A stretch of DNA of 64,000 nucleotides from Marispirochaeta sp. (GCA_963676835.2 CAXXFF010000003.1:608001-672000), one strand, 5' to 3'. Positions 4,014-20,117 are shown, counted from the first letter of the stretch. Made by a program: numbers and translations. Notes: generated from the sequence alone by a model not told the origin.

Positions 4014-4829
4014 TCAGTTCATTTCATAACCGCCGTCTACGTTCAGAGTCTGACCGGTTATAAAATCAGCATCTTCTGAACAGAGGAAACTCACCGCTCC
4101 GCCGATATCATCGGTTGTACCGATCCTTGCAAGGGGTATTTTTGTAATCATCTCGGCAGTTGCCTCTTCTACGGAAATTCCAAGGGACTCCGCCTTGCCT
4201 TTAATACTGGCATCCCACATGGGGGTAGAAACTACACTGGGAGAAATCGCATTTACATTAATACCGTAGGGTGCAAAAGCCATGGCACTGGACTGGGTAA
4301 TACTGATAATTGCCGCCTTGGATGCAGCGTAATGTATCTGGAAGGATCGTCCCCTGCGGCCTGCAATAGAGGAAAAGTTAACAATTTTGCCTCCGCAGAC
4401 AGGGCGCTTGCCTTCCGGCAGACTCTGAACCTGGTCTACCATCTGCTGACCGACAATCTGGCAGGCAAAGGCAGTTCCCTTCTGGTTGATTGCTATAATT
4501 CTGTCCCAGTCCTTCTCTTCCACCTCAAGGAATTCCCGACTCTGGACAATGCCCGCAGCATTTACCATAAAGTCGATCCGGCCGAAGCTGTCCAGGGTAA
4601 ACTTTACAACCTTGCGGATGTCATCTGTCTTTGAGATATCCGCTGCAATACTGACTGCGTCAGTGCCTTTTGCTTTACACTCATCCACAGCCGCTTTAAG
4701 CTGTTCTTCGCTTATATCGGACAGAACCATTTTTGCTCCATCCGCAGCCAGACGGAGGGCAACACCTTTACCTATTCCGGAAGCCGATCCGAAAACAAGG
4801 GCAATCTTATCTTTATGACGCTTTTCCAT
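4014..4829 (-). CDS. SDR-family NAD-dependent oxidoreductase (polyol/sorbitol dehydrogenase-like)
   Basis: GSASGIG, NAAG, YAASK catalytic motif, GQTLNVDGG. Confidence 0.88.
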   Translation of the reverse strand: MEKRHKDKIALVFGSASGIGKGVALRLAADGAKMVLSDISEEQLKAAVDECKAKGTDAVSIAADISKTDDIRKVVKFTLDSFGRIDFMVNAAGIVQSREFLEVEEKDWDRIIAINQKGTAFACQIVGQQMVDQVQSLPEGKRPVCGGKIVNFSSIAGRRGRSFQIHYAASKAAIISITQSSAMAFAPYGINVNAISPSVVSTPMWDASIKGKAESLGISVEEATAEMITKIPLARIGTTDDIGGAVSFLCSEDADFITGQTLNVDGGYEMN

Positions 4830-4880
4830 TTAACTCTCCAGTTATTCGATTCTCAAGTATTCAAGCACACCGAACCTTTC

Positions 4881-4897
4881 GGTCCAATTATTATACC
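4881..4897. promoter_or_regulatory. Operator copy 1 (GGTCCAATTATTATACC)
   Basis: Degenerate match to a palindrome found 5 times; lies just downstream of TTGCCT-N17-TATAAT on the minus strand. Confidence 0.65.
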
Positions 4898-4966
4898 TAT
4901 TATATCCTCACTCCCGATCTAAGGCAACAAGAAGAATATTGCAGATACAGCGAAAATAGAGCCATC

Positions 4967-4994
4967 AAAAAAAATGCGCCGCAAAAACGGCGCA
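4967..4994 (-). terminator. Rho-independent terminator after dhaL
   Basis: Stem TGCGCCG/CGGCGCA followed by U8 on the minus strand. Confidence 0.75.
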
Positions 4995-5023
4995 CTCACT
5001 TAGATTTTTACATAACCTGAAAA

Positions 5024-5644
5024 TCATCTGAAGACTTCGGCAAAGCCCTGTATAAGATAGAGCCCGGCGGTTGCCCCGGGGTCCTGGTGCCCCAGTGACT
5101 GTTCCAAATAGTAGGCTGCACGGCCATGGGTGGCCTGCATCTCTTTTGTTGATTCCAGCCCGGCCTCTGCAGCAGTAAGAGCCGCCCTTAAAGCTGAAGC
5201 GAGATCTGAATGACTTTCGGCAAGCGCATCAGCGACCGGCCCGATAACATCAATGATGGTTTTCTCTCCCCTGTCGGATTTACCCCGCTCTTTAAGTCCC
5301 TCTTCGAAGGCCTGAAAGAAATCAGCCAGACTGCCTGCTGAAATCTCCTCCACTCCCTTAAGGGCCTTACCTCCCCGCATAAAACCTGTGGCCATGAGGG
5401 TGCCCATTGTACTGGGAGCCGCATTGTTCATGGCCATGCCGGCTTTAGCAAGAAACTTACCGATATCTGTCTCCCCCTCAGCCGGTTCAAGAGCGGCTGC
5501 TGCGGTGAAGGCACGGGCCATGGTAAGTCCCAGGTCTCCGTCTCCCATTCTGGCATCAAGCTCTATTAACAGATCACGGCCCTCTTCCATTTTCTTTTCC
5601 AGGCTGCGAAAAAGAAGTTTTATGCTGCTGATATCATAAGCCAT
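5024..5644 (-). CDS. dhaL: Dihydroxyacetone kinase family, L (nucleotide-binding) subunit
   Basis: GDGDLG, GEKTIID, HGRAAY, DPGA motifs. Confidence 0.92.
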   Translation of the reverse strand: MAYDISSIKLLFRSLEKKMEEGRDLLIELDARMGDGDLGLTMARAFTAAAALEPAEGETDIGKFLAKAGMAMNNAAPSTMGTLMATGFMRGGKALKGVEEISAGSLADFFQAFEEGLKERGKSDRGEKTIIDVIGPVADALAESHSDLASALRAALTAAEAGLESTKEMQATHGRAAYYLEQSLGHQDPGATAGLYLIQGFAEVFR

Positions 5645-5653
5645 GACGATCTC

Positions 5654-6661
5654 CTAAAACTGTATCTGCGTAAAGAAGGGTGTATCCGCGGGTTTTGCCA
5701 GCAGACGCTTCAGTTCATCATCCAGTTTTATCACGGAAATAGAGAAGCCGGTCATTTCCATGGAAGTGGCAAACTCACCAAGGTAGGCACGAAAAACAGT
5801 TATACCTTTTTCTTTAAGAATCTGATTCACTCTGCGGTAGATAATATACTGCTCCTCTTTCGGCGTCGAACCAAGACCATTAATGAGAACTGAAACTTCA
5901 TCTCCGGTCGCTGCTTCCAGGTCGGGGAGAATCTGGTCCATCATTTCATTTACCACATTATCCGCAGTTTCCAGGGGTCCTTTTCGTATCCCAGGCTCTC
6001 CATGGATACCCATGCCTATTTCCATTTCGCCATCGGCAATGGTAAAGGAGGGTTTTCCCACTTCGGGGATAATAACCGGAGAGAGGGCAACACCCATGGT
6101 TCTGACTGATGCACCGGCTTTTTCTGCTATCCGTTTAACTTCAGTTAGTTCTGCCCCCTCATCTGCCATGGCACCGGCACATTTGTAGACATAAAAAATA
6201 CCCGCAACACCGCGGCGTTTTCCAGCATTGTCTTTGGATGCGCTGGCAACATCATCGGCAGCGATATAGGTTTCGACCTTGATATCCTCAAAATCCGCCA
6301 TTTCGGCAGCCATATCGAAGTTCATGATATCTCCACCGTAGTTACCGTAGATATACAAAACACCTTTACCGCTGTCTATGCTTTTTGTTATCTCAAACAT
6401 CTGCTGGGCACTGGGACTCTGAAAAACACCTCCCACGGCACAGCCGTCCAGAAGACCTGCCCCGACATAGCCCAGGAAAAGGGGCAAATGACCGGAACCG
6501 CCGCCCGTGGCAAGTGCAACCTTTCCTTTGACCGGCGCATCTGCCCGAATAATAGCCCGGGGCTCACCTTCCAAACCTTTAAGGCGGTCCGGGTGGGCTG
6601 AGAGGATTCCTTCCACCATTTCATCAACAAAATCTTCGGGCTTATTTAAGAATTTTTTCAT
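5654..6661 (-). CDS. dhaK: Dihydroxyacetone kinase family, K (substrate-binding) subunit
   Basis: GGGSGHLP, NYGGD, GMGIHGEPG motifs. Confidence 0.93.
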   Translation of the reverse strand: MKKFLNKPEDFVDEMVEGILSAHPDRLKGLEGEPRAIIRADAPVKGKVALATGGGSGHLPLFLGYVGAGLLDGCAVGGVFQSPSAQQMFEITKSIDSGKGVLYIYGNYGGDIMNFDMAAEMADFEDIKVETYIAADDVASASKDNAGKRRGVAGIFYVYKCAGAMADEGAELTEVKRIAEKAGASVRTMGVALSPVIIPEVGKPSFTIADGEMEIGMGIHGEPGIRKGPLETADNVVNEMMDQILPDLEAATGDEVSVLINGLGSTPKEEQYIIYRRVNQILKEKGITVFRAYLGEFATSMEMTGFSISVIKLDDELKRLLAKPADTPFFTQIQF

Positions 6662-6673
6662 TGCTACGCTCCC

Positions 6674-7645
6674 CTATTTAGATCCGCCCACAGGGTGCAG
6701 ATTGCCCCGGCCTTCTATCACGGAGATAACATTATCCATGGACATGTTCGCCATGTTAAAGGTTGCCTCAAGAGTTCCTGCACCGATGTGGGGGGTAACA
6801 ATAAAGCGGTCGTCATTCAGCAGTTTCGAAGCCGTGGGCGGTTCGAATTCAAAAACATCTACCGCCGCCCGGGCTACTATGCCGTCACAAACCGCCTGAT
6901 AAAGATCCTCTTCAGCAACTACACCGCCCCGGGCAATATTCACCAGGAACAGGCCTTTTTTGGCTGTGGACAGAAGTTTTTTATCCACCAGGTGGTTGGT
7001 CTCAGCTGTCAACGGTAGATGAACAGAGATAAAATCCGATTGGGCAAAGATCTCTTCAAGGGAAGCAAATTCAACACCCAGGGAAGCAGCCGCTGCCTTG
7101 TCCTGAAACAGATCATAGGCAAGGGTTTTTGTTCCAAAGGGTTTCAGGTAGGAGGCAACTTTTTTTCCGATATTGCCGAAACCTAAAATTCCCACAGTTT
7201 TCCCGGCGAGCTCGCTGCCCACATAGACACCGAACTTTTTGTTCCGCAGATCGTTGCAAAGATTCTGGACATTGCGGGCCAGATTCAGCATAAGCCCCAT
7301 GGTAACTTCCGCAACAGCATTGCTGTTTGACCCAGGACAGTTTGAAACTGAAATCCCCCGCTCAATGGCGGCTGGAATGTCAATATTATCCGTGCCTACT
7401 CCGAATTTGGAAATTGCTTTCAGCTGGGGAGCTGCATCCATTACAGCAGGACTGACCTTCTCAAGCCCCACAATAAAGCCGGCCACATCGTCAACCGCCT
7501 TTATTACTTCAGATTCATCAAGAGGCTCCCAGCTGTATATGGGTTTCATTTCGTACCCTGCCTCCGACAAGGTACGATCCATGTGATCATGTACAAGCTC
7601 TTCAATACTGGGCTGCACAGTTACAAGTATCTTTTTTCTACTCAT
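6674..7645 (-). CDS. D-isomer-specific 2-hydroxyacid dehydrogenase (phosphoglycerate dehydrogenase-like, no ACT domain)
   Basis: GVGTDNID, GFGNIG, NIARG, DVFEFEP, TPHIG; start moved to ATG 7645 after SD GAGG. Confidence 0.88.
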   Translation of the reverse strand: MSRKKILVTVQPSIEELVHDHMDRTLSEAGYEMKPIYSWEPLDESEVIKAVDDVAGFIVGLEKVSPAVMDAAPQLKAISKFGVGTDNIDIPAAIERGISVSNCPGSNSNAVAEVTMGLMLNLARNVQNLCNDLRNKKFGVYVGSELAGKTVGILGFGNIGKKVASYLKPFGTKTLAYDLFQDKAAAASLGVEFASLEEIFAQSDFISVHLPLTAETNHLVDKKLLSTAKKGLFLVNIARGGVVAEEDLYQAVCDGIVARAAVDVFEFEPPTASKLLNDDRFIVTPHIGAGTLEATFNMANMSMDNVISVIEGRGNLHPVGGSK

Positions 7646-7655
7646 TTTATTTTCC

Positions 7656-8939
7656 TCAGGCAAAACCAAGCAGTCGTGGTACAAACAGTACCAGGTCGGG
7701 AATAAAGGTAATCAGCATCAGTGCCGCAATTTCCATCAGAATAAACGGCGCTATAGCCCTGGAGATCTTCATCATGCTGACCCCGGCTATAGGACAGGCA
7801 ACAAAGAGACATACTCCAAGAGGCGGGGTAGCCAGACCGATATTCAGGTTTACCAGCATAATAAGAGCAAAATGAACCGGATGGATTCCAAGACGAATAG
7901 CCAGGGGCATAAGGATCGGTCCAAGCAGAATGGCATTGGCCCCGGTTTCCATAATCATACCCATGAAAAGTAGCAGAACATTTACCAGCAGCAGAAACTG
8001 CACTCTGCCGAGGTTTGCACCAACCAGGGCTTTTGCAAGAGCCTGGGGTATCCGTTCTATGGAAAGAGTCCAGCTTAAAACACTGGCAAATCCTACAATC
8101 AGAATAAGAATTGAAGTAGTGGTTGCACTTTTCAGAAGGCATGCAGGGATATCACTCAGTTTAAGAGTCTTGAAAATAAAGAACCCCACAAACAGGGCGT
8201 AGCAGGTTGCGACCGCTGCAGCTTCGGTGGGAGTAAACACTCCGCTTAAAATTCCGCCGATAATAATAACCGGCATAAGCAGTGCCAGAATTGCATCCTT
8301 GGTTCCCCGCACCAGCTCCATGGCTCCCACTTTTTCCTTGCGGTAGGGGTGGTTTCGCTTAACACCAATTATGTAGGCCATAATCATAAGTGCGATTCCC
8401 ACAAGGAGTCCCGGAATAAATCCGGCTGCAAAAAGGGCACCGATGGATATTCCCATAATCGAACCGAATACAACCATAATAATGCTGGGGGGAATAATAG
8501 GCCCGATAACCGAAGAGGCTGCCGTAACGGCTGCGCTGTAGTCGGGTTCGAAACCATCCTCAACCATGGCGGGAATTAAGATTGATCCGATGGCGGAGGT
8601 ATCGGAAACTCCCGCTCCGGTAAGGCCTGCAAAGAGAATACTGGCGCCGATATTTGCCTGAGCAAGACCTCCCCTCAAGCGTCCCACCACAAGGCCTGCA
8701 AACTTTACCAGTCTGGTGGTTATTCCGGTTTTGTTCATCAGCTCACCGGCCAGGATAAAAAACGGAATAGAAAGAAGAACGAATACATCAACGGAGCTGT
8801 AAAAACGCTGGGCAATTACTGTAAAGGGAACCTTGTCCCATACAATAAGAAAGGTTGTGGCACTGATACCCAGGGCAAAAGCAATGGGAACGCCGACAAG
8901 AAGAGTAACAAGAAAGGGTATAAAAATCCATGCTGACAT
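7656..8939 (-). CDS. dctM: TRAP transporter large permease
   Basis: IPFFILAGELM, IIPPS, FTPTEAA, TPPLG motifs; polytopic. Confidence 0.95.
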   Translation of the reverse strand: MSAWIFIPFLVTLLVGVPIAFALGISATTFLIVWDKVPFTVIAQRFYSSVDVFVLLSIPFFILAGELMNKTGITTRLVKFAGLVVGRLRGGLAQANIGASILFAGLTGAGVSDTSAIGSILIPAMVEDGFEPDYSAAVTAASSVIGPIIPPSIIMVVFGSIMGISIGALFAAGFIPGLLVGIALMIMAYIIGVKRNHPYRKEKVGAMELVRGTKDAILALLMPVIIIGGILSGVFTPTEAAAVATCYALFVGFFIFKTLKLSDIPACLLKSATTTSILILIVGFASVLSWTLSIERIPQALAKALVGANLGRVQFLLLVNVLLLFMGMIMETGANAILLGPILMPLAIRLGIHPVHFALIMLVNLNIGLATPPLGVCLFVACPIAGVSMMKISRAIAPFILMEIAALMLITFIPDLVLFVPRLLGFA

Positions 8940-9448
8940 CAGGCTGCCTCCTTGCCGGTTGTAGAGAACAGATCCTGTATTTCCGCTAACAGCAGATAAA
9001 TTACATGGATCACTATCAGTATTGAACCGATGGGCAGGGCCATCTTCGGAAAATACATGGTTATTTCAATAGTTGTAGCCTTTACCTTCTGTGCCGCTTC
9101 TGCAGCAAGAAAACTGTATTTGGCAAAAAAGAACAGAAACCATATCAGGGTGCCTTTTATCAAAATAGATAAAATCTGGCTTAATTTTTTCGGCAGAATA
9201 GTAATCAGAAAATCGACTCCCACATGGAGCCCCTGTTTGGCAGCAATCCCTGCACCAAGCATGCCGATCCAGATCAGCAGCATACGGGAAAGCTCCTCAG
9301 ACCAGGGCACCGAAGCCCGGGCAGCTCTCAGGGTTACCTGGACCATAACAACTACCAGCATAACTGCAACCAGCACCATGCATATGTAGCCTACAAACTT
9401 TTCCAGGATATCGCTTATACGTTTAAGAACATCAACTAGTTTCCCCAC
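8939..9448 (-). CDS. dctQ: TRAP transporter small permease
   Basis: WSEEL and HVGVD motifs, 4 TM, between dctP and dctM. Confidence 0.93.
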   Translation of the reverse strand: MGKLVDVLKRISDILEKFVGYICMVLVAVMLVVVMVQVTLRAARASVPWSEELSRMLLIWIGMLGAGIAAKQGLHVGVDFLITILPKKLSQILSILIKGTLIWFLFFFAKYSFLAAEAAQKVKATTIEITMYFPKMALPIGSILIVIHVIYLLLAEIQDLFSTTGKEAA

Positions 9449-9573
9449 TTCAAGAACCTCCTCTCAAGGAATAATCATATGAGGTTTCCGCCTGTTCCGG
9501 GTGGTGGACGGACAGAACAAAACCCGCCCCCGGTTTAACAGGGACGGGCCGTAATTACTTTTACATGGATAAA

Positions 9574-10731
9574 TCAGCGGTAGCCGAATTTCTTCTCTGA
9601 CTCTGCAACTGCAGCCATCAGACCATCGATATACTTGGCATCAACCTTTCCACGGAGATACTCAAGAACTGGAGGCTGGGCTATATCTGCATACTGCTGT
9701 TTTTCTGCAACAGTGGGGGTATAGATCTGCATTCCGACTTCAGCCAGGTGGGCAAGACCGGTACTCTGGGAGTGGATGGTCTCAACAGCACGGTTTACAA
9801 CTGCAGCCTGATGGGCGGCAACCTGTACAATCTGCTGAAGGTCAGCGGGAAGGCTGTTAAGGAAATCAGAGTTCATAACAAAGTAGTCTTCACTCCAGAG
9901 GTGACCATCGAGGGTAATGTAATCCTGAACTTCATAGAGTGCATTGGTTGAAATAACGGAGATGGGGTTTTCCTGTCCGTCTACAACACCGGTCTGAAGA
10001 GAGGTATACAGCTCGCTCCATGCGATAGGCACCGCGTCGGCGCCGAAGGCTTTCATCATTTCAACAAAGATCGGAGAGGTCATTACACGGATACGCTCGC
10101 CTTTAAGGTCTGCAGGAGTCTTAATCTGCTTTTTTGAGTGGGTAAAATGACGGGTTCCGTTCTGGCCCATGGCAAGTACAGTCAGGCCGGTCTCTTTTTC
10201 GAAATCCGCACAGAAATCCTTCCAGAACTGGCTGTTGTCCAGAACATCCCAGGCAATCTCTTCAGATTTGAACAGGTAGGGAATGTAGAGAATTTCGAAG
10301 GGCGCAAAGAACTGACCCATGGTTCCGGTTCCAACCGCTGCTTCAAGAGCGCCGCTCTGAGCCATTTCACAGGTTGCCTTGTGGTCTCCCAGCTGTCCGT
10401 CGGGATAGACTTCTACATTAATCCTTCCGCCTGCACGGGCTTCTACAATATGCTCGAAGATATCACACAGAGCATATTCCTGTTCCCACTGAACTGTTGG
10501 AACAGCCTGGTACGAAGGCGCATTGATGGCGATACGGATAGTATACTCCGCGTCGGCAACTGCAGGATTTTCCTTCTTTTCAGGAGCCGGGGGAATAGGA
10601 TTTGTCACAGCGGCTTCTTTCTTCTCTGCTGCAGGTGCAGCGGAAGCAGTCTCCTTCTCAGAGCCACCACAGCCGACAAACACTACAAGTACTGCAAGAA
10701 TTAACAGGACGGCAAGTAATCTGGATCTCAT
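9574..10731 (-). CDS. dctP: TRAP substrate-binding lipoprotein
   Basis: Lipobox FVGC; YPDGQLG, LKGERIRV, ELYTSLQTGVVDGQENP; start ATG 10731 after AAGGAGG. Confidence 0.93.
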   Translation of the reverse strand: MRSRLLAVLLILAVLVVFVGCGGSEKETASAAPAAEKKEAAVTNPIPPAPEKKENPAVADAEYTIRIAINAPSYQAVPTVQWEQEYALCDIFEHIVEARAGGRINVEVYPDGQLGDHKATCEMAQSGALEAAVGTGTMGQFFAPFEILYIPYLFKSEEIAWDVLDNSQFWKDFCADFEKETGLTVLAMGQNGTRHFTHSKKQIKTPADLKGERIRVMTSPIFVEMMKAFGADAVPIAWSELYTSLQTGVVDGQENPISVISTNALYEVQDYITLDGHLWSEDYFVMNSDFLNSLPADLQQIVQVAAHQAAVVNRAVETIHSQSTGLAHLAEVGMQIYTPTVAEKQQYADIAQPPVLEYLRGKVDAKYIDGLMAAVAESEKKFGYR

Positions 10732-10805
10732 AAATTTCCTCCTTTCATGAGACACATTTTATTTCCCGGTCCGGAGGACCGGTATCAACTGTGACCGCTT
10801 AACGG

Positions 10806-11804: not shown

Positions 11805-11833
11805 ATTTTAACCCGGCTTATGTCATATGTCAA
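11805..11833 (-). promoter_or_regulatory. Promoter of the lyase-TRAP-dhaKL operon with overlapping near-palindrome TGACATATGACA
   Basis: TTGACA-N17-TAAAAT. Confidence 0.65.
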
Positions 11834-12959: not shown

Positions 12960-12976
12960 GGTCTAATAATTAATAC
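12960..12976. promoter_or_regulatory. Operator copy 2 (GGTCTAATAATTAATAC)
   Basis: Between TTGCGC-N17-CATAAT (minus) and the transaldolase start. Confidence 0.65.
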
Positions 12977-13117: not shown

Positions 13118-13822
13118 ATGCCGAGAAAGCGCCCCAAGGTATATGAGGAGGTTATTTCTACTCTTGAAGAGATTATCGACAAAGATAATCTTACCGCAGG
13201 AGACCGCCTCCCCTCGGAATCGGAACTGGCAGAGATGATGGAGGTTGGGACAAGGTCCATCAGAGAAGCCTACGCAACCCTCCGTACCATGGGAATAGTG
13301 GAAGTCCAGCATGGCAAGGGAATTTTTCTTGCCGAAAACAGTATGGATCACTTCCTGGAATCACTGGCTACATCCATTAAATTCACTTTTTCCGACACGC
13401 GGAGCCTTCTTCTTGAGTTAACCGATGTCCGTCTTCTTATTGAAACAGGCATTATCCATGATTTCGCCCTGGAACGGACCGAAGAGGACGTTGAAAATCT
13501 CCGTAAAATCACCGCGGACATGCAGACATTTAATGCGGAGAAGGATCTGATTAATTTCAACCTGAAGGATCTGGAGTTTCATGCCTATCTGGTGCAGAGC
13601 TTTCCCAACCGGATCATTAAATCACTGTACATTCACCTTCAGCGGCTGCTCAGGCAGAGTATACAGCTTACCCAGTATTACGGAGGGGAAGAATCTCTCT
13701 GTCTGGATCAGCATCAGGAAATGCTTGAATTAATTGCCGCGGGAGACGGTGACGGTGCGCGGAGAGTTCTTTCCGAGCACCTGCAGCGAACCCGGAAAAC
13801 CGTAGAATCCCTGCAGATTTAG
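13118..13822 (+). CDS. GntR/FadR-family transcriptional regulator
   Basis: GDRLPSESELA...IREA HTH plus FCD domain; ATG 13118 after GAGGAG. Confidence 0.92.
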   Translation: MPRKRPKVYEEVISTLEEIIDKDNLTAGDRLPSESELAEMMEVGTRSIREAYATLRTMGIVEVQHGKGIFLAENSMDHFLESLATSIKFTFSDTRSLLLELTDVRLLIETGIIHDFALERTEEDVENLRKITADMQTFNAEKDLINFNLKDLEFHAYLVQSFPNRIIKSLYIHLQRLLRQSIQLTQYYGGEESLCLDQHQEMLELIAAGDGDGARRVLSEHLQRTRKTVESLQI

Positions 13823-13842
13823 CCGGTAAGAATAATCCTGTT

Positions 13843-14559
13843 TCAGCTGCCGGTGCTGATATTATATGCCTTGATAAGGTGTTCCCGCATAAGGGTTTCC
13901 GCGAGATCAGGCTTCTGATCCCGGATGGCGTCAGCCACGGTGCGGTGATCTATCAGGGCTTCTTCCGGGACACCGCCTCTGGAAAGGGTTATCTCCCGGG
14001 TATTTTCAATCAGATCTTCAACAAGCTGGGAAAGACCGAAAAGAAAATCATTCTCTGAAGCCCGTGCAATAGCCAGGTGATAGGCATGATCACCAGCCAT
14101 ACCTATACCTCCGGAACCGAGGTCCTTCTCCATATCATCCAGGGCTTTGTAGATCTCTTTCAGATCATCTTCAGTACGGCGCTCAGCCGCCAGAGCCGCG
14201 GATTTTGTCTCAAGAATTAAACGGACTTCAATTATATCACTGACCATCTGGTTGGTACGGCGAAACAGGGTCTGCACCACATTAAGGGCGTGATTAAGAG
14301 AAACCTCGCGGATAAATGTTCCGCCCGAAACCCCTACCCGGGTTTCAACTTCTCCCATAAGCTCCAGGGCACGGATTGCCTCGCGCACCGAGGTTCTGCT
14401 GACTCCAAGCTGCTCAGCAAGCTCCCTCTCGGGAGGGAGCTGATCGCCGGGATTGAGAGTCCCGGCATCTATAAGGCTTCGAATCATCTCTGCGACGTCT
14501 TCAAAGACCTTCTTTTTTTTAAGTTTACCGAAAAGATTGTCCTGTTTGTTTGTCATCAT
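13843..14559 (-). CDS. GntR/FadR-family transcriptional regulator
   Basis: GDQLPPERELAEQLGVSRTSVREA HTH plus FCD domain; exact start uncertain. Confidence 0.92.
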   Translation of the reverse strand: MMTNKQDNLFGKLKKKKVFEDVAEMIRSLIDAGTLNPGDQLPPERELAEQLGVSRTSVREAIRALELMGEVETRVGVSGGTFIREVSLNHALNVVQTLFRRTNQMVSDIIEVRLILETKSAALAAERRTEDDLKEIYKALDDMEKDLGSGGIGMAGDHAYHLAIARASENDFLFGLSQLVEDLIENTREITLSRGGVPEEALIDHRTVADAIRDQKPDLAETLMREHLIKAYNISTGS

Positions 14560-14614: not shown

Positions 14615-15283
14615 TCAGCCGGTGATCCAGTTCTTATCACCAAAAGCTTTTTTCCAGGAGCCTTCGAACTTCGCCCAGCGGTCGATAGTATAGGCATTGG
14701 CAAAAAAGAGCTTCCAGAGACCATAGGAACAGGTCATTTCGTCTGCACCCATACGGAAACCGTCTACAATCTGCTGAAGAGACCGCGCGGCACTCATGAC
14801 TTTAGTATCGATTCCTCCGGCCATGTATGCCTCGGTAACACCCTGCATAAGATCGTTGGTAGACCGTTCATCAGCTTCACCAAGAAGTCCAAGGAAGATT
14901 GCAGCATGATCAGCACCGGCTTTGGCAACCACAAGGGCTTCCATGGTGGTGTGGATAGCTGTTGCACAGATTTCGATGTCCGTGGTTTCCTTTATTTTCT
15001 GAATAGCCTTGATGCCTTCAATACTGGTCTGAACCTTAACAACCACCTTGTCGCCCAGGGAGTTGATGATTTTTGCCTCTTCCACCATGGTCTTTGCATC
15101 GGGTGCACTGACCTGTGAAAAAACTTTACATGATACAGTCTTACAGATATCGGTGAAGGTTTTCTTGAAATCACCGCCGACGGCTGCCATCATGCTGGGA
15201 TTCATGGTTACTCCGTCAAGGATTCCCCACTCATTGATCTCCTTGATTTCATCAAGAACACAGGAGTTAAGATAAAATTCCAT
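14615..15283 (-). CDS. Divergent transaldolase/fructose-6-phosphate aldolase (FSA)-family protein
   Basis: 222 aa; GVTMNPS, VVVKV (Schiff-base Lys), AKAGA, GADEMT. Confidence 0.85.
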   Translation of the reverse strand: MEFYLNSCVLDEIKEINEWGILDGVTMNPSMMAAVGGDFKKTFTDICKTVSCKVFSQVSAPDAKTMVEEAKIINSLGDKVVVKVQTSIEGIKAIQKIKETTDIEICATAIHTTMEALVVAKAGADHAAIFLGLLGEADERSTNDLMQGVTEAYMAGGIDTKVMSAARSLQQIVDGFRMGADEMTCSYGLWKLFFANAYTIDRWAKFEGSWKKAFGDKNWITG

Positions 15284-15341: not shown

Positions 15342-15358
15342 GGTCTAATAATTAGACG
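15342..15358. promoter_or_regulatory. Operator copy 3 (GGTCTAATAATTAGACG)
   Basis: Perfect 7-1-7 palindrome GTCTAAT-A-ATTAGAC directly after TTGACT-N17-TATAAC (minus). Confidence 0.8.
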
Positions 15359-15398
15359 TTATACCATGAATCATGACTGCAGTCAAAGCCCAAATACC

Positions 15399-15426
15399 GA
15401 TAAAGCCGCAAAAATGCGGCTTTATC
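15399..15426 (-). terminator. Hairpin/terminator after the SBP gene
   Basis: 12-bp perfect stem GATAAAGCCGCA/TGCGGCTTTATC. Confidence 0.65.
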
Positions 15427-15447
15427 TTACTGTTCAAGCTGAAAATA

Positions 15448-16518
15448 TCAGGGAAGCGGATCTGCAGGAGCAGGTTTGCCTGCCTTTGCACTTGCAATCA
15501 GCTCCTGTACCCAATCCTGGGGATAGGATAGGTCAGCAAGGCCGCCCTTTTGGGTATGCTCAAGAAAATAGTCCAGCTGTTCTTCCCCGAAGACCATGGG
15601 ACTCATGTGGATCTCTTTGGGAACTTCTTCGCCGTTGAGAATCTCAAGGGCAGTCCAGAATGCGGTACTGACGGAACCGGGAACAATGCTTACCGACATG
15701 GAAGGATAGCTTCCGCCGTTCTTTTCCTGCATCTCTTTCCAGATTACCAGCTCATCATAGCGGTGACCGAAAATCTGCAGAGGCGCAGGACGTCCGGCAT
15801 TCTCAAAGGCCTTGAGGCTTCCATAGCCGTCACCGCCCTGGGCCACAACCGCCTTGATTTCGGGCAGAGAAGGAAGAATTCCGGCGACCTCTTTCTGGGC
15901 TACCGACTGGGTCCAGTTTCCGTATACTTCACCCACGACGCTCAGGTTGCTGTATTTATCTGCTGTTTCAACAATAGCTTTATGGATTTCATCATCTGCA
16001 AAGGTTCCGGCCATTCCGCGGATTTCGAGAATATTTACCGGCTGAGATGGAAATGCCTTGTGGAGGTGCTCAACCTCTGCTTCTCCCATATCGTAAAAAT
16101 CTGTAATCAGCTTCCAGGCTGAAGGATCTGTTACGGTCTGATCAAAACAAACCACAGGGATTCCGGCTTCAACAGCTTTTGCAACCGCACCGTTAAGGGC
16201 AGTCGGGGATGCCGCATCCAGTACAATAGCATCATAGCCTTCGAGAACCAGATTCTGCAGTAGAGCAGCCTGCTCGGCGGCACTGGATTCATTGGTGGTA
16301 AATGCGGGACCTTCGGCAATAAGACCATCGGCCTTGGCCTGTTCTACAACGGCTTCCCAGTTTTTAATCATCTGCTGCCGCCAGGAGTTTCCCGCATAGT
16401 TGTTACACAGGGCAATCCGCCACTCTCCGCTTTTCTTTTCTCCCTGACCACCTGCGAACAGGGTAACCATTGCCAGGAGAGATACAAGAATCAGACTTAC
16501 AACTCTTCTCATACACAT
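15448..16518 (-). CDS. Sugar ABC-type substrate-binding protein (no adjacent permease)
   Basis: Signal peptide ending LFAGGQGE; ALCNNYAGNSWRQQM; RbsB-like. Confidence 0.88.
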   Translation of the reverse strand: MCMRRVVSLILVSLLAMVTLFAGGQGEKKSGEWRIALCNNYAGNSWRQQMIKNWEAVVEQAKADGLIAEGPAFTTNESSAAEQAALLQNLVLEGYDAIVLDAASPTALNGAVAKAVEAGIPVVCFDQTVTDPSAWKLITDFYDMGEAEVEHLHKAFPSQPVNILEIRGMAGTFADDEIHKAIVETADKYSNLSVVGEVYGNWTQSVAQKEVAGILPSLPEIKAVVAQGGDGYGSLKAFENAGRPAPLQIFGHRYDELVIWKEMQEKNGGSYPSMSVSIVPGSVSTAFWTALEILNGEEVPKEIHMSPMVFGEEQLDYFLEHTQKGGLADLSYPQDWVQELIASAKAGKPAPADPLP

Positions 16519-16584
16519 TACCTTCCTTATTTTGGTAATTTTCCGGAAACATCCTCCTTGTTCCGGATATCCATCAATCTTTAT

Positions 16585-16601
16585 GGATTAATTGATAGAC
16601 C
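16585..16601. promoter_or_regulatory. Operator copy 4 (GGATTAATTGATAGACC)
   Basis: 5 nt downstream of TTGACG-N18-TACAAT (minus). Confidence 0.55.
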
Positions 16602-16659
16602 TTTGAATTGTATGGTCCAAAAATCTGAGCCGTCAAGGATTTTTATTTTTAAGAACTCT

Positions 16660-16709
16660 TTGACAGAGACCGAGGTAAATGATATTGTTTTAGGGCTAAT
16701 TATTAGACC
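16660..16709 (+). promoter_or_regulatory. Promoter TTGACA-N17-TATTGT plus operator copy 5 (GGGCTAATTATTAGACC, 16693-16709)
   Basis: Operator overlaps the predicted TSS of the ALDH-sucCD operon. Confidence 0.75.
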
Positions 16710-16740
16710 TTTATTGCGACGCATAGAATATGGAGGAAAT

Positions 16741-18096
16741 ATGAGCGCAGATATACAGGAACTGGTAGCCCGGTCCCGGAAAGCACTTACAGAGATTGAA
16801 AACTACAGCCAGGAGCAGGTTGATGCACTGGTAAAGATTATAGGCAAAGTAGTTTATGACAATGCTGAAATGTTTGCCCGCATGGCAGTTGAAGAATCCA
16901 AAATGGGTAATTTTGATGACAAACTGAAGAAAAAGCTTGGTAAATCAAAGATTCTCTGGCACAGCCTGAAGGGCAAAAAAAGTATCGGTATCCTTTCACG
17001 GGATCCTGAAACAGGTATTACCGAGATTGCAAAACCTGTGGGTGTCGTGGGTGCCGTTCAGCCCTGTACCAACCCTATTGTTACCCCCATGGCCAATGCG
17101 ATGGCAGCAATAAAGGGACGTAACACCATTATCGTAACTCCTCACCCCCGTACCGCCAACTGTACCAAGGTATTTATCGATATGGTAAAGGAAGCCTGGG
17201 CGCATCTGAATCCGCCGAATGATATTTTCCTGTGTGTGGAGAATCCCACCATCGAATCCACCACGGAGCTTATGAAGAGCGTGGATGTGGTTGTGGCAAC
17301 CGGCGGTCCCGGAATGGTTAAATCAGCCTATTCCAGCGGCAAGCCCTCCTTCGGTGTAGGTCCCGGAAACGTTCAGTGTCTTCTCGATGAGGGCATTGAC
17401 CTGAAAAAGGCCATCGACATGATTGTTACCGGACGTACCTTTGATAACGGCATTATCTGCTCCGGCGAGCAGACCATTATTATGCCCTCCTCCATGAAGG
17501 AAGCAGTTGAAGCTGAGCTGAAAGCCCGGGGAGTATATGTTGCCAGTGCAGAAGAAGCGGAAGCTCTGAAGAACACCTGCTATCCCGAAGGAAGAATAAG
17601 CAAGGATATGGTCGGCCAGTCTGTTCAGACCATGACCAAAGCAGCAGGCCTCTCCGTTCCCGAAGACTGCCCCCTGGTTTCTGTATGGGTGGATAAGAAC
17701 GACCGGGACAGCGTCTTAAGGAAAGAGAAGATGTTCCCCCTGAATGTACTGCTTACCTATGATTCCTTCGACGAGGCTGTTGAAATTGCCAACCACAACC
17801 TCTCCATGGAAGGCAAGGGACACTCCGTAAGTATCCACTCCCACAACCAGGAGCATATTGAACAGTTAGGTACAGCAGCCAAGGTAAGCCGGGTTATTGT
17901 CAATGCAATCTGTTCCACTACTTCCGGCGGAAGCTTTACCAACGGGCTCAACCCCACCAGTACCCTGGGATGCGGAAGCTGGGGAAACAACAGTATCTCC
18001 GAGAACTTCTACTACCGGCACCTGCTGAATATAACCCGTATAGCCCTTCCCCTGGAAAACAAGAAAGTTCCTACAGACGAAGAGATCTGGGGGTAA
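16741..18096 (+). CDS. CoA-acylating aldehyde dehydrogenase (clostridial succinate-semialdehyde / sulfoacetaldehyde dehydrogenase-like)
   Basis: PCTNP, ATGGPGMV, GVGPGN, FDNGIICSGEQ (catalytic Cys), EKMFP, LGCGSWG; ATG 16741 after GGAGG. Confidence 0.9.
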   Translation: MSADIQELVARSRKALTEIENYSQEQVDALVKIIGKVVYDNAEMFARMAVEESKMGNFDDKLKKKLGKSKILWHSLKGKKSIGILSRDPETGITEIAKPVGVVGAVQPCTNPIVTPMANAMAAIKGRNTIIVTPHPRTANCTKVFIDMVKEAWAHLNPPNDIFLCVENPTIESTTELMKSVDVVVATGGPGMVKSAYSSGKPSFGVGPGNVQCLLDEGIDLKKAIDMIVTGRTFDNGIICSGEQTIIMPSSMKEAVEAELKARGVYVASAEEAEALKNTCYPEGRISKDMVGQSVQTMTKAAGLSVPEDCPLVSVWVDKNDRDSVLRKEKMFPLNVLLTYDSFDEAVEIANHNLSMEGKGHSVSIHSHNQEHIEQLGTAAKVSRVIVNAICSTTSGGSFTNGLNPTSTLGCGSWGNNSISENFYYRHLLNITRIALPLENKKVPTDEEIWG

Positions 18097-18102
18097 TTTT
18101 TA

Positions 18103-19248
18103 ATGAAACTTCTTGAATATCAGGCCCATGTACTCTTTGAAGAGTACGGCCTCCCTTCAAGCTCGGGGGATGTTGCATCTTCTGTGGCGGAGCTTGCCAG
18201 CATTTCAGCGGGTATAAGCACATTTCCTGTTGTGGTTAAAGCACAGGTGCAGACCGGCGGCCGGGGCAAGGCAGGCGGTGTCCAGCTTGCAGCCAACGCG
18301 GAGGAGCTCAAAAGCAAGGGAGAAACCATCCTGGGTCTTACCATAAAAGATCTGAAAGTGGAAAAGGTATTTATTACCCCTGCAGTTGAGATTGCAAAAG
18401 AGATGTATCTGAGCATTATCATGGACCGGAAAACCAAGTGTCCGGTGCTGATCTTCTCTGCGGAAGGCGGAATTGATATCAACGATATCGCAGACCGTCA
18501 TCCCGAAAAGATCGTAAAGCTTGAGATTATGCCCGACCAGGGTATTCAGAGCTATCATGCAAAATATATTGCCGACTATTCCGGGATTCCCGAACTCGCC
18601 GGTCAGATTGAGGATGTGCTGAAAAAGCTCTACACCCTCTTTTCCGAAAAAAACTGTATGCTGGCGGAGATTAATCCCCTGGTGGTTAAAAAGGACGGAA
18701 ATCTGGCCTGTCTCGATGGAAAAATCGACGTTGACGACAGTTCCCTGTTTAAGCACGAACAGTTCCGGGTATGGAGAGATGAGGGAGAGACCAATCCCCT
18801 TATTCTTGAAGCCCGGGAATTCCGCTTTACCTATATTCCCGTTGAAGACGCCGGCAACATAGCGGTTATAAGCAATGGTTCGGGAATGCTCATGTCCAGC
18901 ATCGACCTGATCAGTGCCGCAGGACATTCGGTATGTTCCGTCCTCGACCTGGGCGGCGGTGCCACCGCGGAACGCATAAAAGAAGCTGTCCGCATTATGT
19001 TGAAAAATCCCAAGGTAAAGCTGCTTTTTATCAACATCTTCGGGGGAATTACCCGCTGTGACGAAGTTGCCCGGGGTGTACTTGAAGCAACCCAGGACGG
19101 TCACACACCGGAGCAGTTTGTACTCCGTCTGGAGGGAACCAACAAAGCGGAGGGTATAGAGATTGCCTCAGGTATAGATATCCCCGTAGCTTTCGCCGAC
19201 GACCTGGTAGATGGTGTAGCGAAAATTGATGAAAGGATGAAAGCATGA
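18103..19248 (+). CDS. sucC: ADP-forming acyl-CoA ligase beta subunit (succinyl-CoA synthetase family, divergent)
   Basis: LLEYQ, KAQVQTGGRGKAGGV, EINPL, NIFGGITRCD, RLEGTN. Confidence 0.88.
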   Translation: MKLLEYQAHVLFEEYGLPSSSGDVASSVAELASISAGISTFPVVVKAQVQTGGRGKAGGVQLAANAEELKSKGETILGLTIKDLKVEKVFITPAVEIAKEMYLSIIMDRKTKCPVLIFSAEGGIDINDIADRHPEKIVKLEIMPDQGIQSYHAKYIADYSGIPELAGQIEDVLKKLYTLFSEKNCMLAEINPLVVKKDGNLACLDGKIDVDDSSLFKHEQFRVWRDEGETNPLILEAREFRFTYIPVEDAGNIAVISNGSGMLMSSIDLISAAGHSVCSVLDLGGGATAERIKEAVRIMLKNPKVKLLFINIFGGITRCDEVARGVLEATQDGHTPEQFVLRLEGTNKAEGIEIASGIDIPVAFADDLVDGVAKIDERMKA

Positions 19249-20117
19249 GCGTTCTGATAGATGAAAATACCCGATTGATCGTCCAGGGAATCACCGGCCG
19301 GGAAGGCTCGTTCCACACCCGGCAGATGCTGGACTACGGAACCAACGTTGTTGCAGGGGTAACCCCCGGCAAGGGCGGAACCACCGTCGAAGGGGTACCG
19401 GTATACAACACCGTTCATGAAGCAATGAGACGCCATGATGCCAATGCGTCAGTTCTCTTTGTTCCCCCGAAGTTCACTTACGGCGGAGCCCAGGAGGCAA
19501 TTGTCAGCGGAGTACCCCTGGTAATTACCATTGCCGAAGGTGTACCGGTATACGATATGTACCAGCTTTACCACCTGGCTCACGCCCACGGCAGCCGCCT
19601 GATAGGCCCCAACTCCTTCGGAATTATATCTCCCGGAAAGAGCAAGGCGGGCTTTATGGCCCACCGGATTTTCAGCCCCGGTAATGTTTCCATTCTTTCA
19701 CGGAGTGCAACCAACGCATACGAGACAGTGTTCCGTCTTACCAACAACGGCATTGGCCAGTCTACCGTAATCGGTGTCGGCGGCGATATGATTGCCGGTT
19801 CCAGCTTTACCGATCTCCTGCCCCTGCTTGAAGCAGACCCCGATACCAAAGTAATTGTAATTATCGGAGAGATCGGCGGAGGCGAAGAGGAGCTTGCAGC
19901 AGCATACATAAAGGAAAATGTCAGCAAACCTGTTGTTGCCTTTATTGCTGGAAAGAACGCACCCAAAGACCGCAGTATGGGTCATGCCGGTGCCATTGTA
20001 AGCCCCGACGGCGAAGGCAGTGCGGAAAACAAGGAAGCCGCCATGAAGGATGCCGGAGCTGTTATCGCAGACAGTACAGTTCACATTACCCAGCTTGTGG
20101 CAGATATTCTGAAATAA
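19245..20117 (+). CDS. sucD: ADP-forming acyl-CoA ligase alpha subunit (succinyl-CoA synthetase family, divergent)
   Basis: VQGITG, GVTPGKGG, GEIGG, MGHAGA (phospho-His); ATGA overlap with beta subunit. Confidence 0.9.
   Translation: MSVLIDENTRLIVQGITGREGSFHTRQMLDYGTNVVAGVTPGKGGTTVEGVPVYNTVHEAMRRHDANASVLFVPPKFTYGGAQEAIVSGVPLVITIAEGVPVYDMYQLYHLAHAHGSRLIGPNSFGIISPGKSKAGFMAHRIFSPGNVSILSRSATNAYETVFRLTNNGIGQSTVIGVGGDMIAGSSFTDLLPLLEADPDTKVIVIIGEIGGGEEELAAAYIKENVSKPVVAFIAGKNAPKDRSMGHAGAIVSPDGEGSAENKEAAMKDAGAVIADSTVHITQLVADILK

Follow-up and report, generated by a model that had tools for sequence, protein, structure and literature searches.

A candidate malate-forming catabolic module with a transaldolase-fold protein of an uncharacterised clade in Marispirochaeta sp.

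Results

In a 64,000-nucleotide stretch of Marispirochaeta sp. DNA (the window), we identified a candidate undescribed catabolic module that unites an SDR dehydrogenase, a transaldolase-fold enzyme, a CoA-acylating semialdehyde dehydrogenase (ALDH) and a variant SucCD, and that is supported by the co-occurrence of homologues in other genomes. Malate is the probable product of its later steps. For the complete chain, in which a deoxy sugar acid, once imported, would undergo oxidation and then cleavage by the aldolase to D-malic semialdehyde, which would proceed through malyl-CoA to D-malate and ATP, then to L-malate and pyruvate, we consider the chances even.

Gene content of the island and its conservation in relatives

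Gene calls and profile scores located in the island all the genes that an earlier note on this DNA had named (Table 1). The best NCBIfam model for the SDR is L-iditol 2-dehydrogenase, at 244 against a cut-off of 338, and its orthologues in four distant core loci are 58-60% identical. The solute-binding protein (SBP), closest among solved structures to 4PE6 (E 7e-45), occurs in one of the 14 other clade loci (G002). Its earlier description as an orphan needs qualifying: a 60% paralogue, together with ATPase and permeases, lies just before the window, at about 602,800-607,300 of G000:C3. Queried against the PDB, the SBP and DctP sequences yielded no ligand names; a single-sequence model of the SBP (pLDDT 46) was too poor for structure search.

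Table 1. Features of the island, in positions of the whole window
Feature	Position	Strand	Remark
SDR dehydrogenase, sorbitol-dehydrogenase/acetoin-reductase-like	4014..4829	-	core gene
Operator GGTCCAATTATTATACC	4881..4897	.	directly 3' of SDR -10 box; same sequence in G002
dhaL + dhaK, triose-kinase family	5024..6661	-	side operon, outside core
D-2-hydroxyacid dehydrogenase, SerA-like	6674..7645	-	side operon
TRAP transporter dctM, dctQ, dctP	7656..10731	-	side operon
DHDPS/NanA-family aldolase	10806..11741	-	first gene of side operon
Sigma-70-type promoter of side operon, without operator	11805..11833	-	pattern match only
362-aa transaldolase-family enzyme	11851..12939	-	D22, N43, Q111, K140, N162, T164, M203, R206
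Operator between 362-aa gene and GntR1	12960..12976	.	
GntR/FadR regulator 1	13118..13822	+	
FadR regulator 2 (FadR2)	13843..14559	-	likely cognate repressor (predicted)
222-aa transaldolase-fold aldolase (putative), new clade	14615..15283	-	core gene
Operator 5' of 222-aa gene	15342..15358	.	
ABC-type solute-binding protein (SBP)	15448..16518	-	genus-specific accessory
Weak operator 3' of SBP promoter	16585..16601	.	4 mismatches, PWM 14.6
Operator 3' of ALDH promoter (16660-16688)	16693..16709	.	
CoA-acylating semialdehyde dehydrogenase (ALDH), C. kluyveri SucD-like	16741..18096	+	core gene; true start ATG 16741
SucC-like ADP-forming ligase beta subunit	18103..19248	+	core gene; SNGSGM signature
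SucD-like alpha subunit	19245..20117	+	core gene; SRSATN[AC]YE and GGDM signatures; MGHAG phospho-His motif kept
Terminator-like hairpin closing ALDH-sucCD	20140..20163	+	

The full core (SDR, aldolase, ALDH, SucC and SucD) is present in 5 of the 14 other clade loci (G002, G735, G780, G463 and G559), mostly accompanied by FadR, and in G735 and G780 the genes form a single run, ALDH-sucC-sucD-SDR-aldolase-fadR; G002 and the source genome (G000) are close kin and not independent. Seven of the 13 top aldolase matches lie on contigs equal in length to that of a top ALDH match or its cluster mate, an indirect sign of linkage. In 8 of the 14 loci, several of them short contigs, the aldolase lies without SDR or ALDH, often in a bare TRAP operon, and it can exist without the back end, since no ALDH was found genome-wide in G003, G005 and G555. 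Searches with the ALDH returned a best match of 40% among 400 other genomes of the phylum, with many matches of AdhE length, none at E <= 1e-125 in the 401 genomes of the G887 class, and none for the five centres.

A shared operator and its probable regulon

The palindrome GGTCTAATWATTAGACC, previously noted as linking these genes, proved to be real, with five sites in the island. Scored against the consensus used for the genome count, GGTCTAATNATTAGACC, the 4.43-Mb genome contains two sites with one mismatch, both within the island, two with two mismatches, one of them within it, and nine with three mismatches, again with one inside; the fifth island site, at 16585, has four. This count is circular, because the consensus was derived from the same island sites. 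Independent support is provided by the recurrence of sites in two genomes outside the training set, G002 (PWM 27.7, 25.9, 23.9 and 12.1) and G003 (24.0 and 23.4), and by the placement of three sites directly 3' of the predicted -10 boxes of the SDR, SBP (SBP2) and ALDH genes, which fits a repressor. The genes sharing the palindrome likely form a FadR regulon, and FadR2, orthologues of which (44-49% identity) occur in three of the four distant core loci, is predicted as the likely cognate repressor. A PWM scan of the G735, G463 and G559 loci found no site (best score 9.4).

Weaker copies of the palindrome lie upstream of the only malic-enzyme gene of the genome (C1:851372) and of a LarA orthologue (C4:285964-287250), with equally high upstream scores at 14 of the 3969 called genes. 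These trans sites score 15.6-19.7, where the top matches in shuffled genomes reach 15-25. At the malic-enzyme gene, G002, a genome with the ALDH, has an identical site; G001, G003 and G005, in which no ALDH was found, lack it. Four of the nine Zn-dehydrogenase genes carry a site, among them those that best match the two Zn-dehydrogenases in the clusters of relatives. In G002 the operator is missing 5' of LarA (PWM 2.3) and weak at the Zn-dehydrogenase (PWM 11.3); the C4 site may belong not to LarA but to the Zn-dehydrogenase gene that diverges from it.

A transaldolase-fold protein of an uncharacterised clade

On sequence grounds, the 222-aa core protein belongs to a tight uncharacterised clade (76 aligned rows, quick tree). 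Its predicted structure is a TAL fold (pLDDT 93.9, TM 0.9), its key residues are N6, N28, Q57, K83, C106, T108, H111, A128, F130, L133, E136, E139 and R167, and it misses the FSA NCBIfam cut-offs (134 < 246, 94 < 306 and 86 < 214). The Schiff-base Lys85 and Gln59 of FSA are matched by K83 and Q57 in all 76 rows; N28 and T108 are likewise invariant in the clade, and T26 and R167 invariant or nearly so. Both transaldolase-family proteins carry Gln where a transaldolase has its acid/base Glu (Q57 here, Q111 in the 362-aa enzyme), and the canonical transaldolase cut-off was missed (112 < 367 bits). The 222-aa protein lacks this Glu and the complete phosphate site of transaldolase (Q57, L133, A166), the site being half lost in the clade (R135 to L, S167 to A/G/V, R169 kept). 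Its donor pocket is FSA-like and hydrophobic (C106, A128), and no cationic residue for a pyruvate carboxylate was found in the pocket of the clade.

Two substitutions set the clade apart from FSA. The position of Tyr131, the dominant proton shuttle of FSA (PMC13259622), holds Phe (F130) in 76 of 76 rows, and that of Asp6 holds Asn (N6) in 74, the other two being gaps. In FSA, Asp6 binds the 3-OH of DHA-type donors and also the 5-OH; with changes at this residue, F6P is no longer cleaved and non-hydroxylated donors are used instead (PMC6099348), and the D6N variant works well as an acetone aldolase (PMC6813633). With the Glu of TAL and the Tyr of FSA both absent, the invariant C106, H111 and E139 were considered for the acid/base role, as candidates only. 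FsaA, the small transaldolases and SqvA share with the 222-aa protein the fold, the Schiff-base Lys, N28 and T108, and the Gln and hydrophobic donor pocket are FSA-like; it differs from these enzymes in Asn for Asp6, Phe for Tyr131, the absence of the phosphate-binding Arg134/Ser166 and the new invariant C106, H111, E115 and E139, with 25-30% identity to solved members. The SF-transaldolase SqvA structure (8BC3) matches at E 5e-18, versus 3e-28 for T. maritima TAL, and an ESM Atlas search matched only generic TAL/FSA clusters.

Among the matches listed, A1-profile scans recovered clade members in 1 of 80 genome loci, the rest being mostly ordinary transaldolases, and in 8 of 80 metagenome loci; by family, the A1 matches were 1 of 38 (that of G559), 2 of 12 (G463) and 2 of 151 (G735). 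The distribution of the clade is under-sampled, because ordinary transaldolases swamped these scans. A class search gave 8 clade matches in 401; five weaker ones were dropped, the two examined being ordinary transaldolases at 32% identity. A single DctP (TRAP) family accompanies the aldolase clade, which makes an acid a more likely substrate than the polyol proposed earlier. The copy of this DctP family in the source genome adjoins KduD.

A second operon and the 362-aa enzyme

The earlier note passed over an operon at 5024-11741 comprising a DHDPS-family aldolase, dctPQM, a 2-hydroxyacid dehydrogenase and then dhaKL. Its predicted promoter (TTGACA-17-TAAAAT, 11833-11805) matches the consensus at 11 of 12 positions, and the operon carries no copy of the operator. 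The aldolase falls below every cut-off, its nearest solved relative being YagE (E 1.5e-33); DhaL passes its cut-off (148 > 138) and DhaK misses it (395 < 406). Orthologues of the TRAP genes follow the 362-aa transaldolase in G735, and dhaKL adjoins a DHDPS-type aldolase in G463 and G735. The operon likely encodes another pathway, with a promoter of its own, in which a 2-keto-3-deoxy acid would yield pyruvate and a triose-type aldehyde for the kinase.

The dhaKL pair is deleted from the G002 island, where the remaining catabolic genes are 92-99% identical and only 49% dhaKL paralogues are retained in the genome, and it is absent from the four distant core loci; relatives of dhaK (58-68%) lie elsewhere in G463, G555, G735 and G780. 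The 362-aa enzyme is under the operator and absent from distant core loci. It combines Q111 with an altered second phosphate motif, has Met (M203) at the TalB F178/FSA Tyr position, as in 6 of 6 aligned homologues, and keeps D22/N162/T201, suited to a DHA donor. The proposal that an FSA-type enzyme releases DHA for DhaKL is not borne out by this distribution, by the absence of Tyr131 from both enzymes or by Asn for Asp6 in the 222-aa clade.

The ALDH-SucCD back end and its probable links to malate

The nearest solved structure to the ALDH is C. kluyveri SucD (8CEI, E 1e-141), whose K66/K70/C242/S243 correspond to K64/K68/C240/S241. K66/K70/S243 were rejected as a specificity test, because every one of the 126 aligned ALDHs, among them a SauS-like one, has both Lys. 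Under the SauS model NF047625 (cut-off 600), the window and G735 ALDHs score 389 and 400, against 520 for a SauS-like control. SucC and SucD pass succinate-CoA ligase cut-offs (410 > 375.55 and 372.7 > 353.2); the malate-CoA ligase MtkA model NF010647 stays below its cut-off (280 < 604). Their divergence, suspected earlier, is evident from the separate canonical sucCD of the genome, which lies beside 2-oxoglutarate dehydrogenase genes (named from their sequences, not by HMM) and has the motifs NGAGLA/SRSGTL/GGDP versus SNGSGM/SRSATN/GGDM.

Malic enzyme lies beside the core in 4 of the 14 loci, and LarA directly follows sucD in G463 and G559. The two LarAs are only 31% alike, and for both the top-scoring model is LarAH6, the malate racemase (485 and 364.5 bits), which is the best family for all five LarAs scanned, including the source-genome orthologue (406 bits). 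The NF052593 cut-off of 500 is passed by one LarA (575.6) and missed by those of G000, G463, G559 and G498 (four scores, in descending order 485, 406, 396 and 364.5). All seven module-linked LarAs have at the W358 position the GHK signature linked to malate-racemase LarAs (PMC7583248), where a lactate-racemase control has DQW. One query found no close LarA match in G780 and G735. Malic enzyme is present in all four congeners, with or without the island, and in the source genome its gene and that of LarA are on contigs other than that of the island.

In Halanaerobiales and in another spirochaete family this ALDH-SucCD back end recurs, its SucCD signatures and LarA included, behind inositol 2-dehydrogenase (419.6 > 355) and lipoamide-complex parts; the racemase that passes the cut-off is from these inositol-type clusters. 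What is new in the island is the aldolase front end and the regulon.

Proposed pathway and alternatives

In the proposed pathway, a carboxylate would be taken up, in most relatives by TRAP, as suggested by the conserved DctP family, and the SDR and/or a Zn-dehydrogenase would convert it to a keto- or aldehydo-acid of C6-C7 length. At K83 of the 222-aa aldolase, retro-aldol cleavage through a Schiff base would release D-malic semialdehyde and a small neutral carbonyl, the donor most likely having no alpha-hydroxyl (acetaldehyde, acetone, or hydroxyacetone via its methyl side) and not being DHA for DhaKL. The ALDH would convert malic semialdehyde, CoA and NAD(P)+ to malyl-CoA, the variant SucCD would convert this with ADP and Pi to D-malate and ATP, and the linked nickel LarA of malate-racemase type and malic enzyme may carry the flux on to L-malate and then pyruvate and CO2. 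Where the earlier note had allowed for a deoxy-, sulfo- or short-chain aldehyde and held that sequence does not reveal the substrate, the context indicates malic semialdehyde and not a sulfo- or short-chain aldehyde, with (R)-3-hydroxy-4-oxobutanoate slightly favoured over 2-hydroxy-4-oxobutanoate. A more tentative suggestion, less likely than not, is that the clade represents a class I aldolase of a new type. Using neither transaldolase Glu nor FSA Tyr, it would cut a non-phosphorylated deoxy acid beside a carbon that bears no hydroxyl, or, in the most daring version, open the ring of quinate, and would supply a fermentation without kinases that gains ATP from malic semialdehyde via malyl-CoA. 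Malic semialdehyde would then be a hub in anaerobic catabolism, fed by front ends that can be exchanged for one another.

Several other readings were weighed against this pathway. Oxidation of a polyol to a ketose, with FSA-type release of DHA (to DhaKL) and a non-glycolytic aldehyde, now seems unlikely, and survives best as a 3-deoxy-heptonate (DAH-type) oxidised at C6 and cleaved, possibly by the 362-aa enzyme, to DHA and 2-hydroxy-4-oxobutanoate. The Gln in both enzymes, the hydrophobic donor pocket, the DHA-suited residues of the 362-aa enzyme and the dhaK relatives elsewhere would agree with it, and D6N could mark a 5-deoxy acceptor, because D6 also binds the 5-OH; it is opposed by the missing Tyr131, by a dhaKL that lacks the operator, is deleted in G002 and pairs with a DHDPS-type aldolase, and by the absence of the 362-aa enzyme from distant core loci. 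Fermentation of quinate, through 3-dehydroquinate and retro-aldol ring opening and cleavage to hydroxyacetone and a C4 semialdehyde, followed by reduction and the malate back end, is somewhat less probable still. C7 equals C3 plus C4, the C1-C2 bond has an alpha-CH2 that fits D6N, TRAP would import the carboxylate, an AroE-like gene adjoins the SDR in G463 and the sister front end of the same back end is a cyclitol route; yet that gene occurs in 1 of 14 loci, G000, G559 and G735 have a single shikimate-dehydrogenase domain each, and the DctP-family copy of the source genome adjoins KduD. An extra AroE, tried as a quinate marker, was not found in three of five genomes. We give the same low weight to oxidative operation of a C. 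kluyveri-type SucD with succinyl-CoA synthetase, from succinic semialdehyde to succinate and ATP: the conserved carboxylate-binding residues of the nearest solved structure and the ligase cut-offs passed would suit it, but it leaves unexplained the two separately recruited malate-racemase-type LarAs after sucD, fumarate reductase and fumarase were not seen in the core-locus gene lists, and the SucCD motifs differ from those of the canonical copy.

The 222-aa protein might instead be a Schiff-base dehydratase/isomerase or a non-catalytic TRAP partner, with malic semialdehyde made by the Zn-dehydrogenase from dihydroxybutyrate (deoxytetronate). This is quite improbable: the protein has no recognised acid/base and in several loci sits between dctP and dctQ without enzymes, but its K83, N28, T108, T26 and R167 are conserved across the 76 rows and it lies within an enzyme operon in G735 and G780. 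Marginally lower stands cleavage of 3-deoxy-heptulosarate (Dha) to pyruvate and tartaric semialdehyde, with tartrate and ATP formed, epimerised by LarA and decarboxylated. An alpha-CH2 donor would fit D6N, malate-racemase-type enzymes also epimerise tartrate weakly (PMC11770544), and direct cleavage would explain the aldolase-only TRAP operons; LarAH62, however, is about 60-fold or more less active on tartrate than on malate (PMC11770544), the donor pocket offers no cation for the pyruvate carboxylate, and the SDR is left unexplained. The least probable is a sulfo-sugar route (SqwD/SqwKL- or sulfo-TAL-like) to sulfoacetate or sulfolactate and ATP. SqwD/SqwKL variants occur in spirochaetes (PMC12890257), and the anion-binding Lys pair is common to a SauS-like ALDH, but the SauS scores are low, the island gene list holds no sulfoquinovosidase, isomerase, transketolase or sulfonate exporter, the SF-transaldolase is more distant than ordinary TAL, and a malic enzyme would make no sense there.

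Discussion

A literature search, subscription papers being outside its scope, did not find this gene combination, and its parts have instructive parallels. The Acholeplasma sulfo-TK variant (SqwD and SqwKL) and the E. gilvus 3-sulfopropionaldehyde branch likewise obtain an anionic aldehyde from C-C cleavage and convert it with an acylating dehydrogenase and an ADP-forming ligase to an acid and ATP (PMC12890257, PMC11659671), as proposed here; the island differs in falling below the SauS cut-off, in having no sulfoquinovose genes and in a product that seems to be processed further, by racemase and malic enzyme, and not exported. The lower L-carnitine pathway of A. baumannii likewise runs from malic semialdehyde through D-malate to pyruvate and CO2, by a non-acylating dehydrogenase and D-malate dehydrogenase and without ATP (PMC11353897), whereas the island is predicted to use acyl-CoA/SucCD, a nickel racemase and malic enzyme on an aldehyde from an aldolase. 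The C. kluyveri succinyl-CoA reductase SucD, whose K66, K70, C242, S243 and H364 are kept in the ALDH, is reductive, toward 4-hydroxybutyrate (PMC10249356), and the island ALDH, in an operon with SucCD, is predicted to be oxidative on a hydroxylated semialdehyde. The phloroglucinol aldolase route of Collinsella, compared by its description in a review, resembles the proposed aldolase step in the retro-aldol cleavage of a beta-hydroxy keto acid, 3-hydroxy-5-oxohexanoate, to a non-hydroxylated donor, acetone, and a semialdehyde, malonic semialdehyde; it differs in the C3 semialdehyde and in its EC 4.1.2.4 (DERA-type) enzyme (PMC13039779).

The operator and the DctP family offer two handles toward the substrate. 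If the proposal is true, it would provide a physiological job for nickel malate racemases, whose in vivo role is an open question (PMC7583248), and place malyl-CoA among the few acyl-CoAs that drive substrate-level phosphorylation. The clade would also be nature's counterpart to the D6X/R134X/S166X aldolases, which have been engineered by chemists to accept non-hydroxylated donors and acceptors without phosphate.

Conserved core and shared putative operator

Gene calls and HMM searches confirmed in the window (G000:C3:608001-672000) every gene named by the earlier note, and revealed between them a side operon that it had missed, encoding a DHDPS-family aldolase, DctPQM, a 2-hydroxyacid dehydrogenase, DhaK and DhaL. 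Besides the locus of the genome under study (G000), the comparison covers 14 loci that carry clade members, that is, relatives of the island's 222-aa transaldolase-fold aldolase. SDR, acylating ALDH, SucC and SucD accompany the aldolase in five: the close relative G002 and the distant core loci of G735, G780, G463 and G559. Eight have the aldolase without SDR, ALDH or SucCD in the 3-23 kb of DNA examined per locus, and the last, in the congener G003, where the ALDH was not found, is a decaying island copy. Orthologues of the island regulator FadR2 occur in three of the four distant core loci, Zn-dehydrogenases in three distant core loci, malic enzyme in 4/14 clade loci, the nickel racemase LarA in 2/14, and a single DctP family (at least 58% identity), represented for instance by L016:2126-3190, in 8/14. 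Among the 14, dhaK is found only in the broken G003 copy; the DHDPS aldolase and the 362-aa enzyme are confined to G002 and G003. Seven of the top 13 aldolase matches pair with top ALDH matches, apparently and by indirect evidence on the same contig; three of the six unpaired matches lie on contigs below 1.5 kb. The earlier grouping of SDR, aldolase, ALDH and SucCD is thus borne out by recurrence in 5/14 loci, and dhaKL, which had been included, drops out, being absent from the distant core loci.

The palindrome GGTCTAATWATTAGACC, 17 bases long and adjoining two GntR/FadR genes, is a putative FadR operator. The site count in the island is circular, as the consensus was built from those same sites. 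Sites were found again in G002 and G003, and three lie directly downstream of predicted -10 boxes. The direct repeat at the side-operon promoter is a possible GntR1 site.

Coordinates of sites, genes and neighbouring units
Feature	Location	Remarks
Palindrome GGTCTAATWATTAGACC	window 4881, 12960, 15342, 16693	weak copy at 16585
Predicted promoter of dhaKL side operon	window 11833-11805	no palindrome site
Direct repeat TGACATA-TGACATA	window 11816-11833	overlaps -35 box of side operon
Perfect-consensus promoter	window 3987-3958	ahead of SBP, sensor kinase, response regulator (window 1-3987)
ABC, PfkB kinase, class II aldolase, LacI unit	window 20416-26644	separate; kept in G002; without operator
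60% paralogue of island SBP	G000:C3 about 601,400-607,300	with ATPase, permeases, two cyclase-family genes; SBP in tandem in G002
LarA orthologue	G000:C4:285964-287250	palindrome at C4:287275
Gene run headed by LarA	G000:C4:280433-287250	presumably resembles [FeFe]-hydrogenase maturation genes, by sequence look
Sole malic-enzyme gene of G000	G000:C1:851372	palindrome at C1:851285
Further candidate FadR2 sites	C2:1580509, C2:1054143, C2:1362864	
G003 island (L014, L220)	G003:C1 about 1,799,700-1,810,700	disrupted aldolase and dhaK genes and a shortened 362-aa gene, flanked at either end by transposase-like ORFs
HIT-family genes with clade	L016:3212-3691, L212:7696-8190, L101:840-1250, L103:5826-6305	
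HIT-family homologue of G000	G000:C2:366034	unlinked
362-aa-enzyme paralogues (44-47%)	G000:C3:816841-820269, L277, L278	with FadR and methylmalonate-semialdehyde dehydrogenase
362-aa-type transaldolase unit	L279:3819-12892 (G559:C2)	with SauS-like acylating ALDH and MmdA carboxyltransferase, beside taurine-type ABC transporter

A distinct clade of probable aldolases

The 222-aa protein has a predicted transaldolase fold (pLDDT 93.9; TM about 0.9) and 63 relatives at 44-90% identity, below which matches drop to about 35%. Only a few clade clusters stand above the ordinary-transaldolase background in an exhaustive profile search, and a quick tree places the 76 clade rows in a single group (support 100). 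The clade occurs in 8 of 401 genomes of the class, so the module is rare. Residues were read by alignment to T. maritima TAL, positions following T. acidophilum numbering. K83, N28 and T108 are kept relative to TAL, and E60 to Q57, N108 to C106 and S130 to A128 are FSA-like exchanges; non-FSA features of the clade are N for D6 and F130 at the FSA Tyr position. At the phosphate site R135 is replaced by L and S167 by A, G or V, with R167 kept. Because of this pattern (Q57, N6, F130, L and A/G/V at R135/S167), the enzyme belongs by membership to neither FSA nor TAL. In the 362-aa enzyme, D22, N162 and R206 are retained, but positions 111 and 203 are Q and M.

According to excerpts of the respective papers, Tyr131 is the proton shuttle of FSA (PMC13259622), and D6, which also binds the 5-OH, is its key position for non-hydroxylated donors, F6P cleavage being lost on change (PMC6099348). 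D6N is absent from the library in that excerpt of PMC6099348, and is described as a good acetone aldolase in part of PMC6813633. The residues make a mono-anionic, unphosphorylated substrate likely and free DHA an unlikely product.

The aldolase gene immediately follows dctP in L013, L015, L098, L100 and L103, none with catabolic enzymes seen adjoining; L013, L015 and L103 have the order dctP-aldolase-dctQ. A HIT-family protein occurs with the clade in four loci, from both spirochaete and high-GC metagenome.

A probable back end leading to malate

The LarAs 3' of sucD in G463 and G559 share 31% identity; for both, the malate-racemase model scores best, and both contain GHK, a malate-racemase signature in the excerpt of PMC7583248. 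LarA and malic enzyme of G000 were sought after this linkage in relatives, their palindromes already standing in an earlier blind genome-wide site list. Upstream sites scoring at least 15.6 occur at 14 of 3969 called genes, and 4 of the 9 Zn-dehydrogenase genes of G000 have sites. The malic-enzyme palindrome is identical in G002 and missing in three congeners where the search found no ALDH. Several points count against this evidence: top scores in shuffled genomes are 15-25, the operator weight matrix found no palindrome upstream of G002 LarA, G002 is closely related to G000, and every congener tested has malic enzyme. Malate is the likely product of the module, and we consider a malate back end quite probable.

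The ALDH and SucCD signatures also occur in 6/72 Halanaerobiales genomes (four opened) and 3/7 genomes of the spirochaete family f20. Upstream, these sister loci encode an ABC transporter, an inositol 2-dehydrogenase, a TIM-barrel protein, an SDR and an M24-family protein. The one inositol 2-dehydrogenase tested scored 419.6, above the cut-off of 355, and the gene lists of these loci showed neither IolD nor IolB. All three f20 loci have a full E1/E2/E3 complex 3' of sucD, the Halanaerobiales DNA examined only E3 plus an E2 tail; LarA was observed in 5/7 sister loci and malic enzyme in 3/7. Thiamine-type cleavage of 2-deoxy-5-keto-D-gluconate, an inositol intermediate, would give (R)-3-hydroxy-4-oxobutanoate and then D-malate, for which a racemase would be needed. 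Because the sister inositol route would yield this compound, the 3-hydroxy isomer is slightly favoured; the alternative, 2-hydroxy-4-oxobutanoate, which leads to the usual malyl-4-CoA, is a little less probable.

Proposed route and alternatives

From the genes, operator-like sites, co-occurrence and residues, all observed directly, we infer a route in which an imported deoxy sugar acid would be oxidised by the SDR or a Zn-dehydrogenase and cleaved by retro-aldol reaction into malic semialdehyde and a small carbonyl; the semialdehyde would be converted to malyl-CoA and this to D-malate with gain of ATP, followed by racemisation and formation of pyruvate and CO2. We give the whole route, from deoxy sugar acid to pyruvate and CO2, an even chance. 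The G000 copy of the DctP family adjoins KduD (328.8, below the cut-off of 338.85), near a UxaA-type dehydratase, and further genes in G463 code for a KduI/IolB-family isomerase, a TIM-barrel protein and an AroE-like product, a context pointing loosely to deoxy-hexonate/heptonate or cyclitol-acid chemistry. A quinate route appears improbable.

The earlier proposal that DHA is released for DhaKL is not supported: dhaKL lacks the operator, has its own predicted promoter, is lost in G002 and pairs with a DHDPS-type aldolase, as do dhaK/dhaL genes in G463 and G735. The G002 loss is an internal deletion that fuses the beginning of dhaK with the last part of dhaL; the only dhaKL relatives left there are 49% paralogues. 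A DHA route, the DAH variant included, is therefore unlikely. Succinate as back-end product also appears improbable. The closest match to the ALDH is C. kluyveri SucD, whose anion-binding residues it keeps, as does a SauS-like control; SucCD has signature motifs of its own and is additional to a canonical copy. For the 222-aa protein a non-aldolase role is very improbable; tartrate as the C4 product is a slimmer prospect still. The module works in like manner to the SqwD/SqwKL branch, as excerpted from PMC12890257, and by the membership features tested the island enzymes fall outside FSA, TAL, SauS and Mtk. A sulfo route is the least credible reading.

Parallel loci and novelty

The L277 and L278 paralogue loci have in addition a Zn-dehydrogenase, a transketolase-like gene and TRAP components. 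With a methylmalonate-semialdehyde dehydrogenase scoring 508 in L278 (cut-off 448.5), the paralogue loci likely represent a parallel route through malonic semialdehyde. The L279 unit, whose SauS-like ALDH (520) and MmdA (751) score below their cut-offs of 600 and 999, may be a malonyl-CoA or sulfo variant.

The ending of the module resembles that of the A. baumannii carnitine route, as excerpted from PMC11353897, and a literature search, with subscription journals outside its scope, returned no paper with the gene combination. The gene set is real and the pathway probably undescribed, its new elements being the aldolase clade as front end, the putative operator, and the apparent reach of that operator to malic enzyme and racemase.
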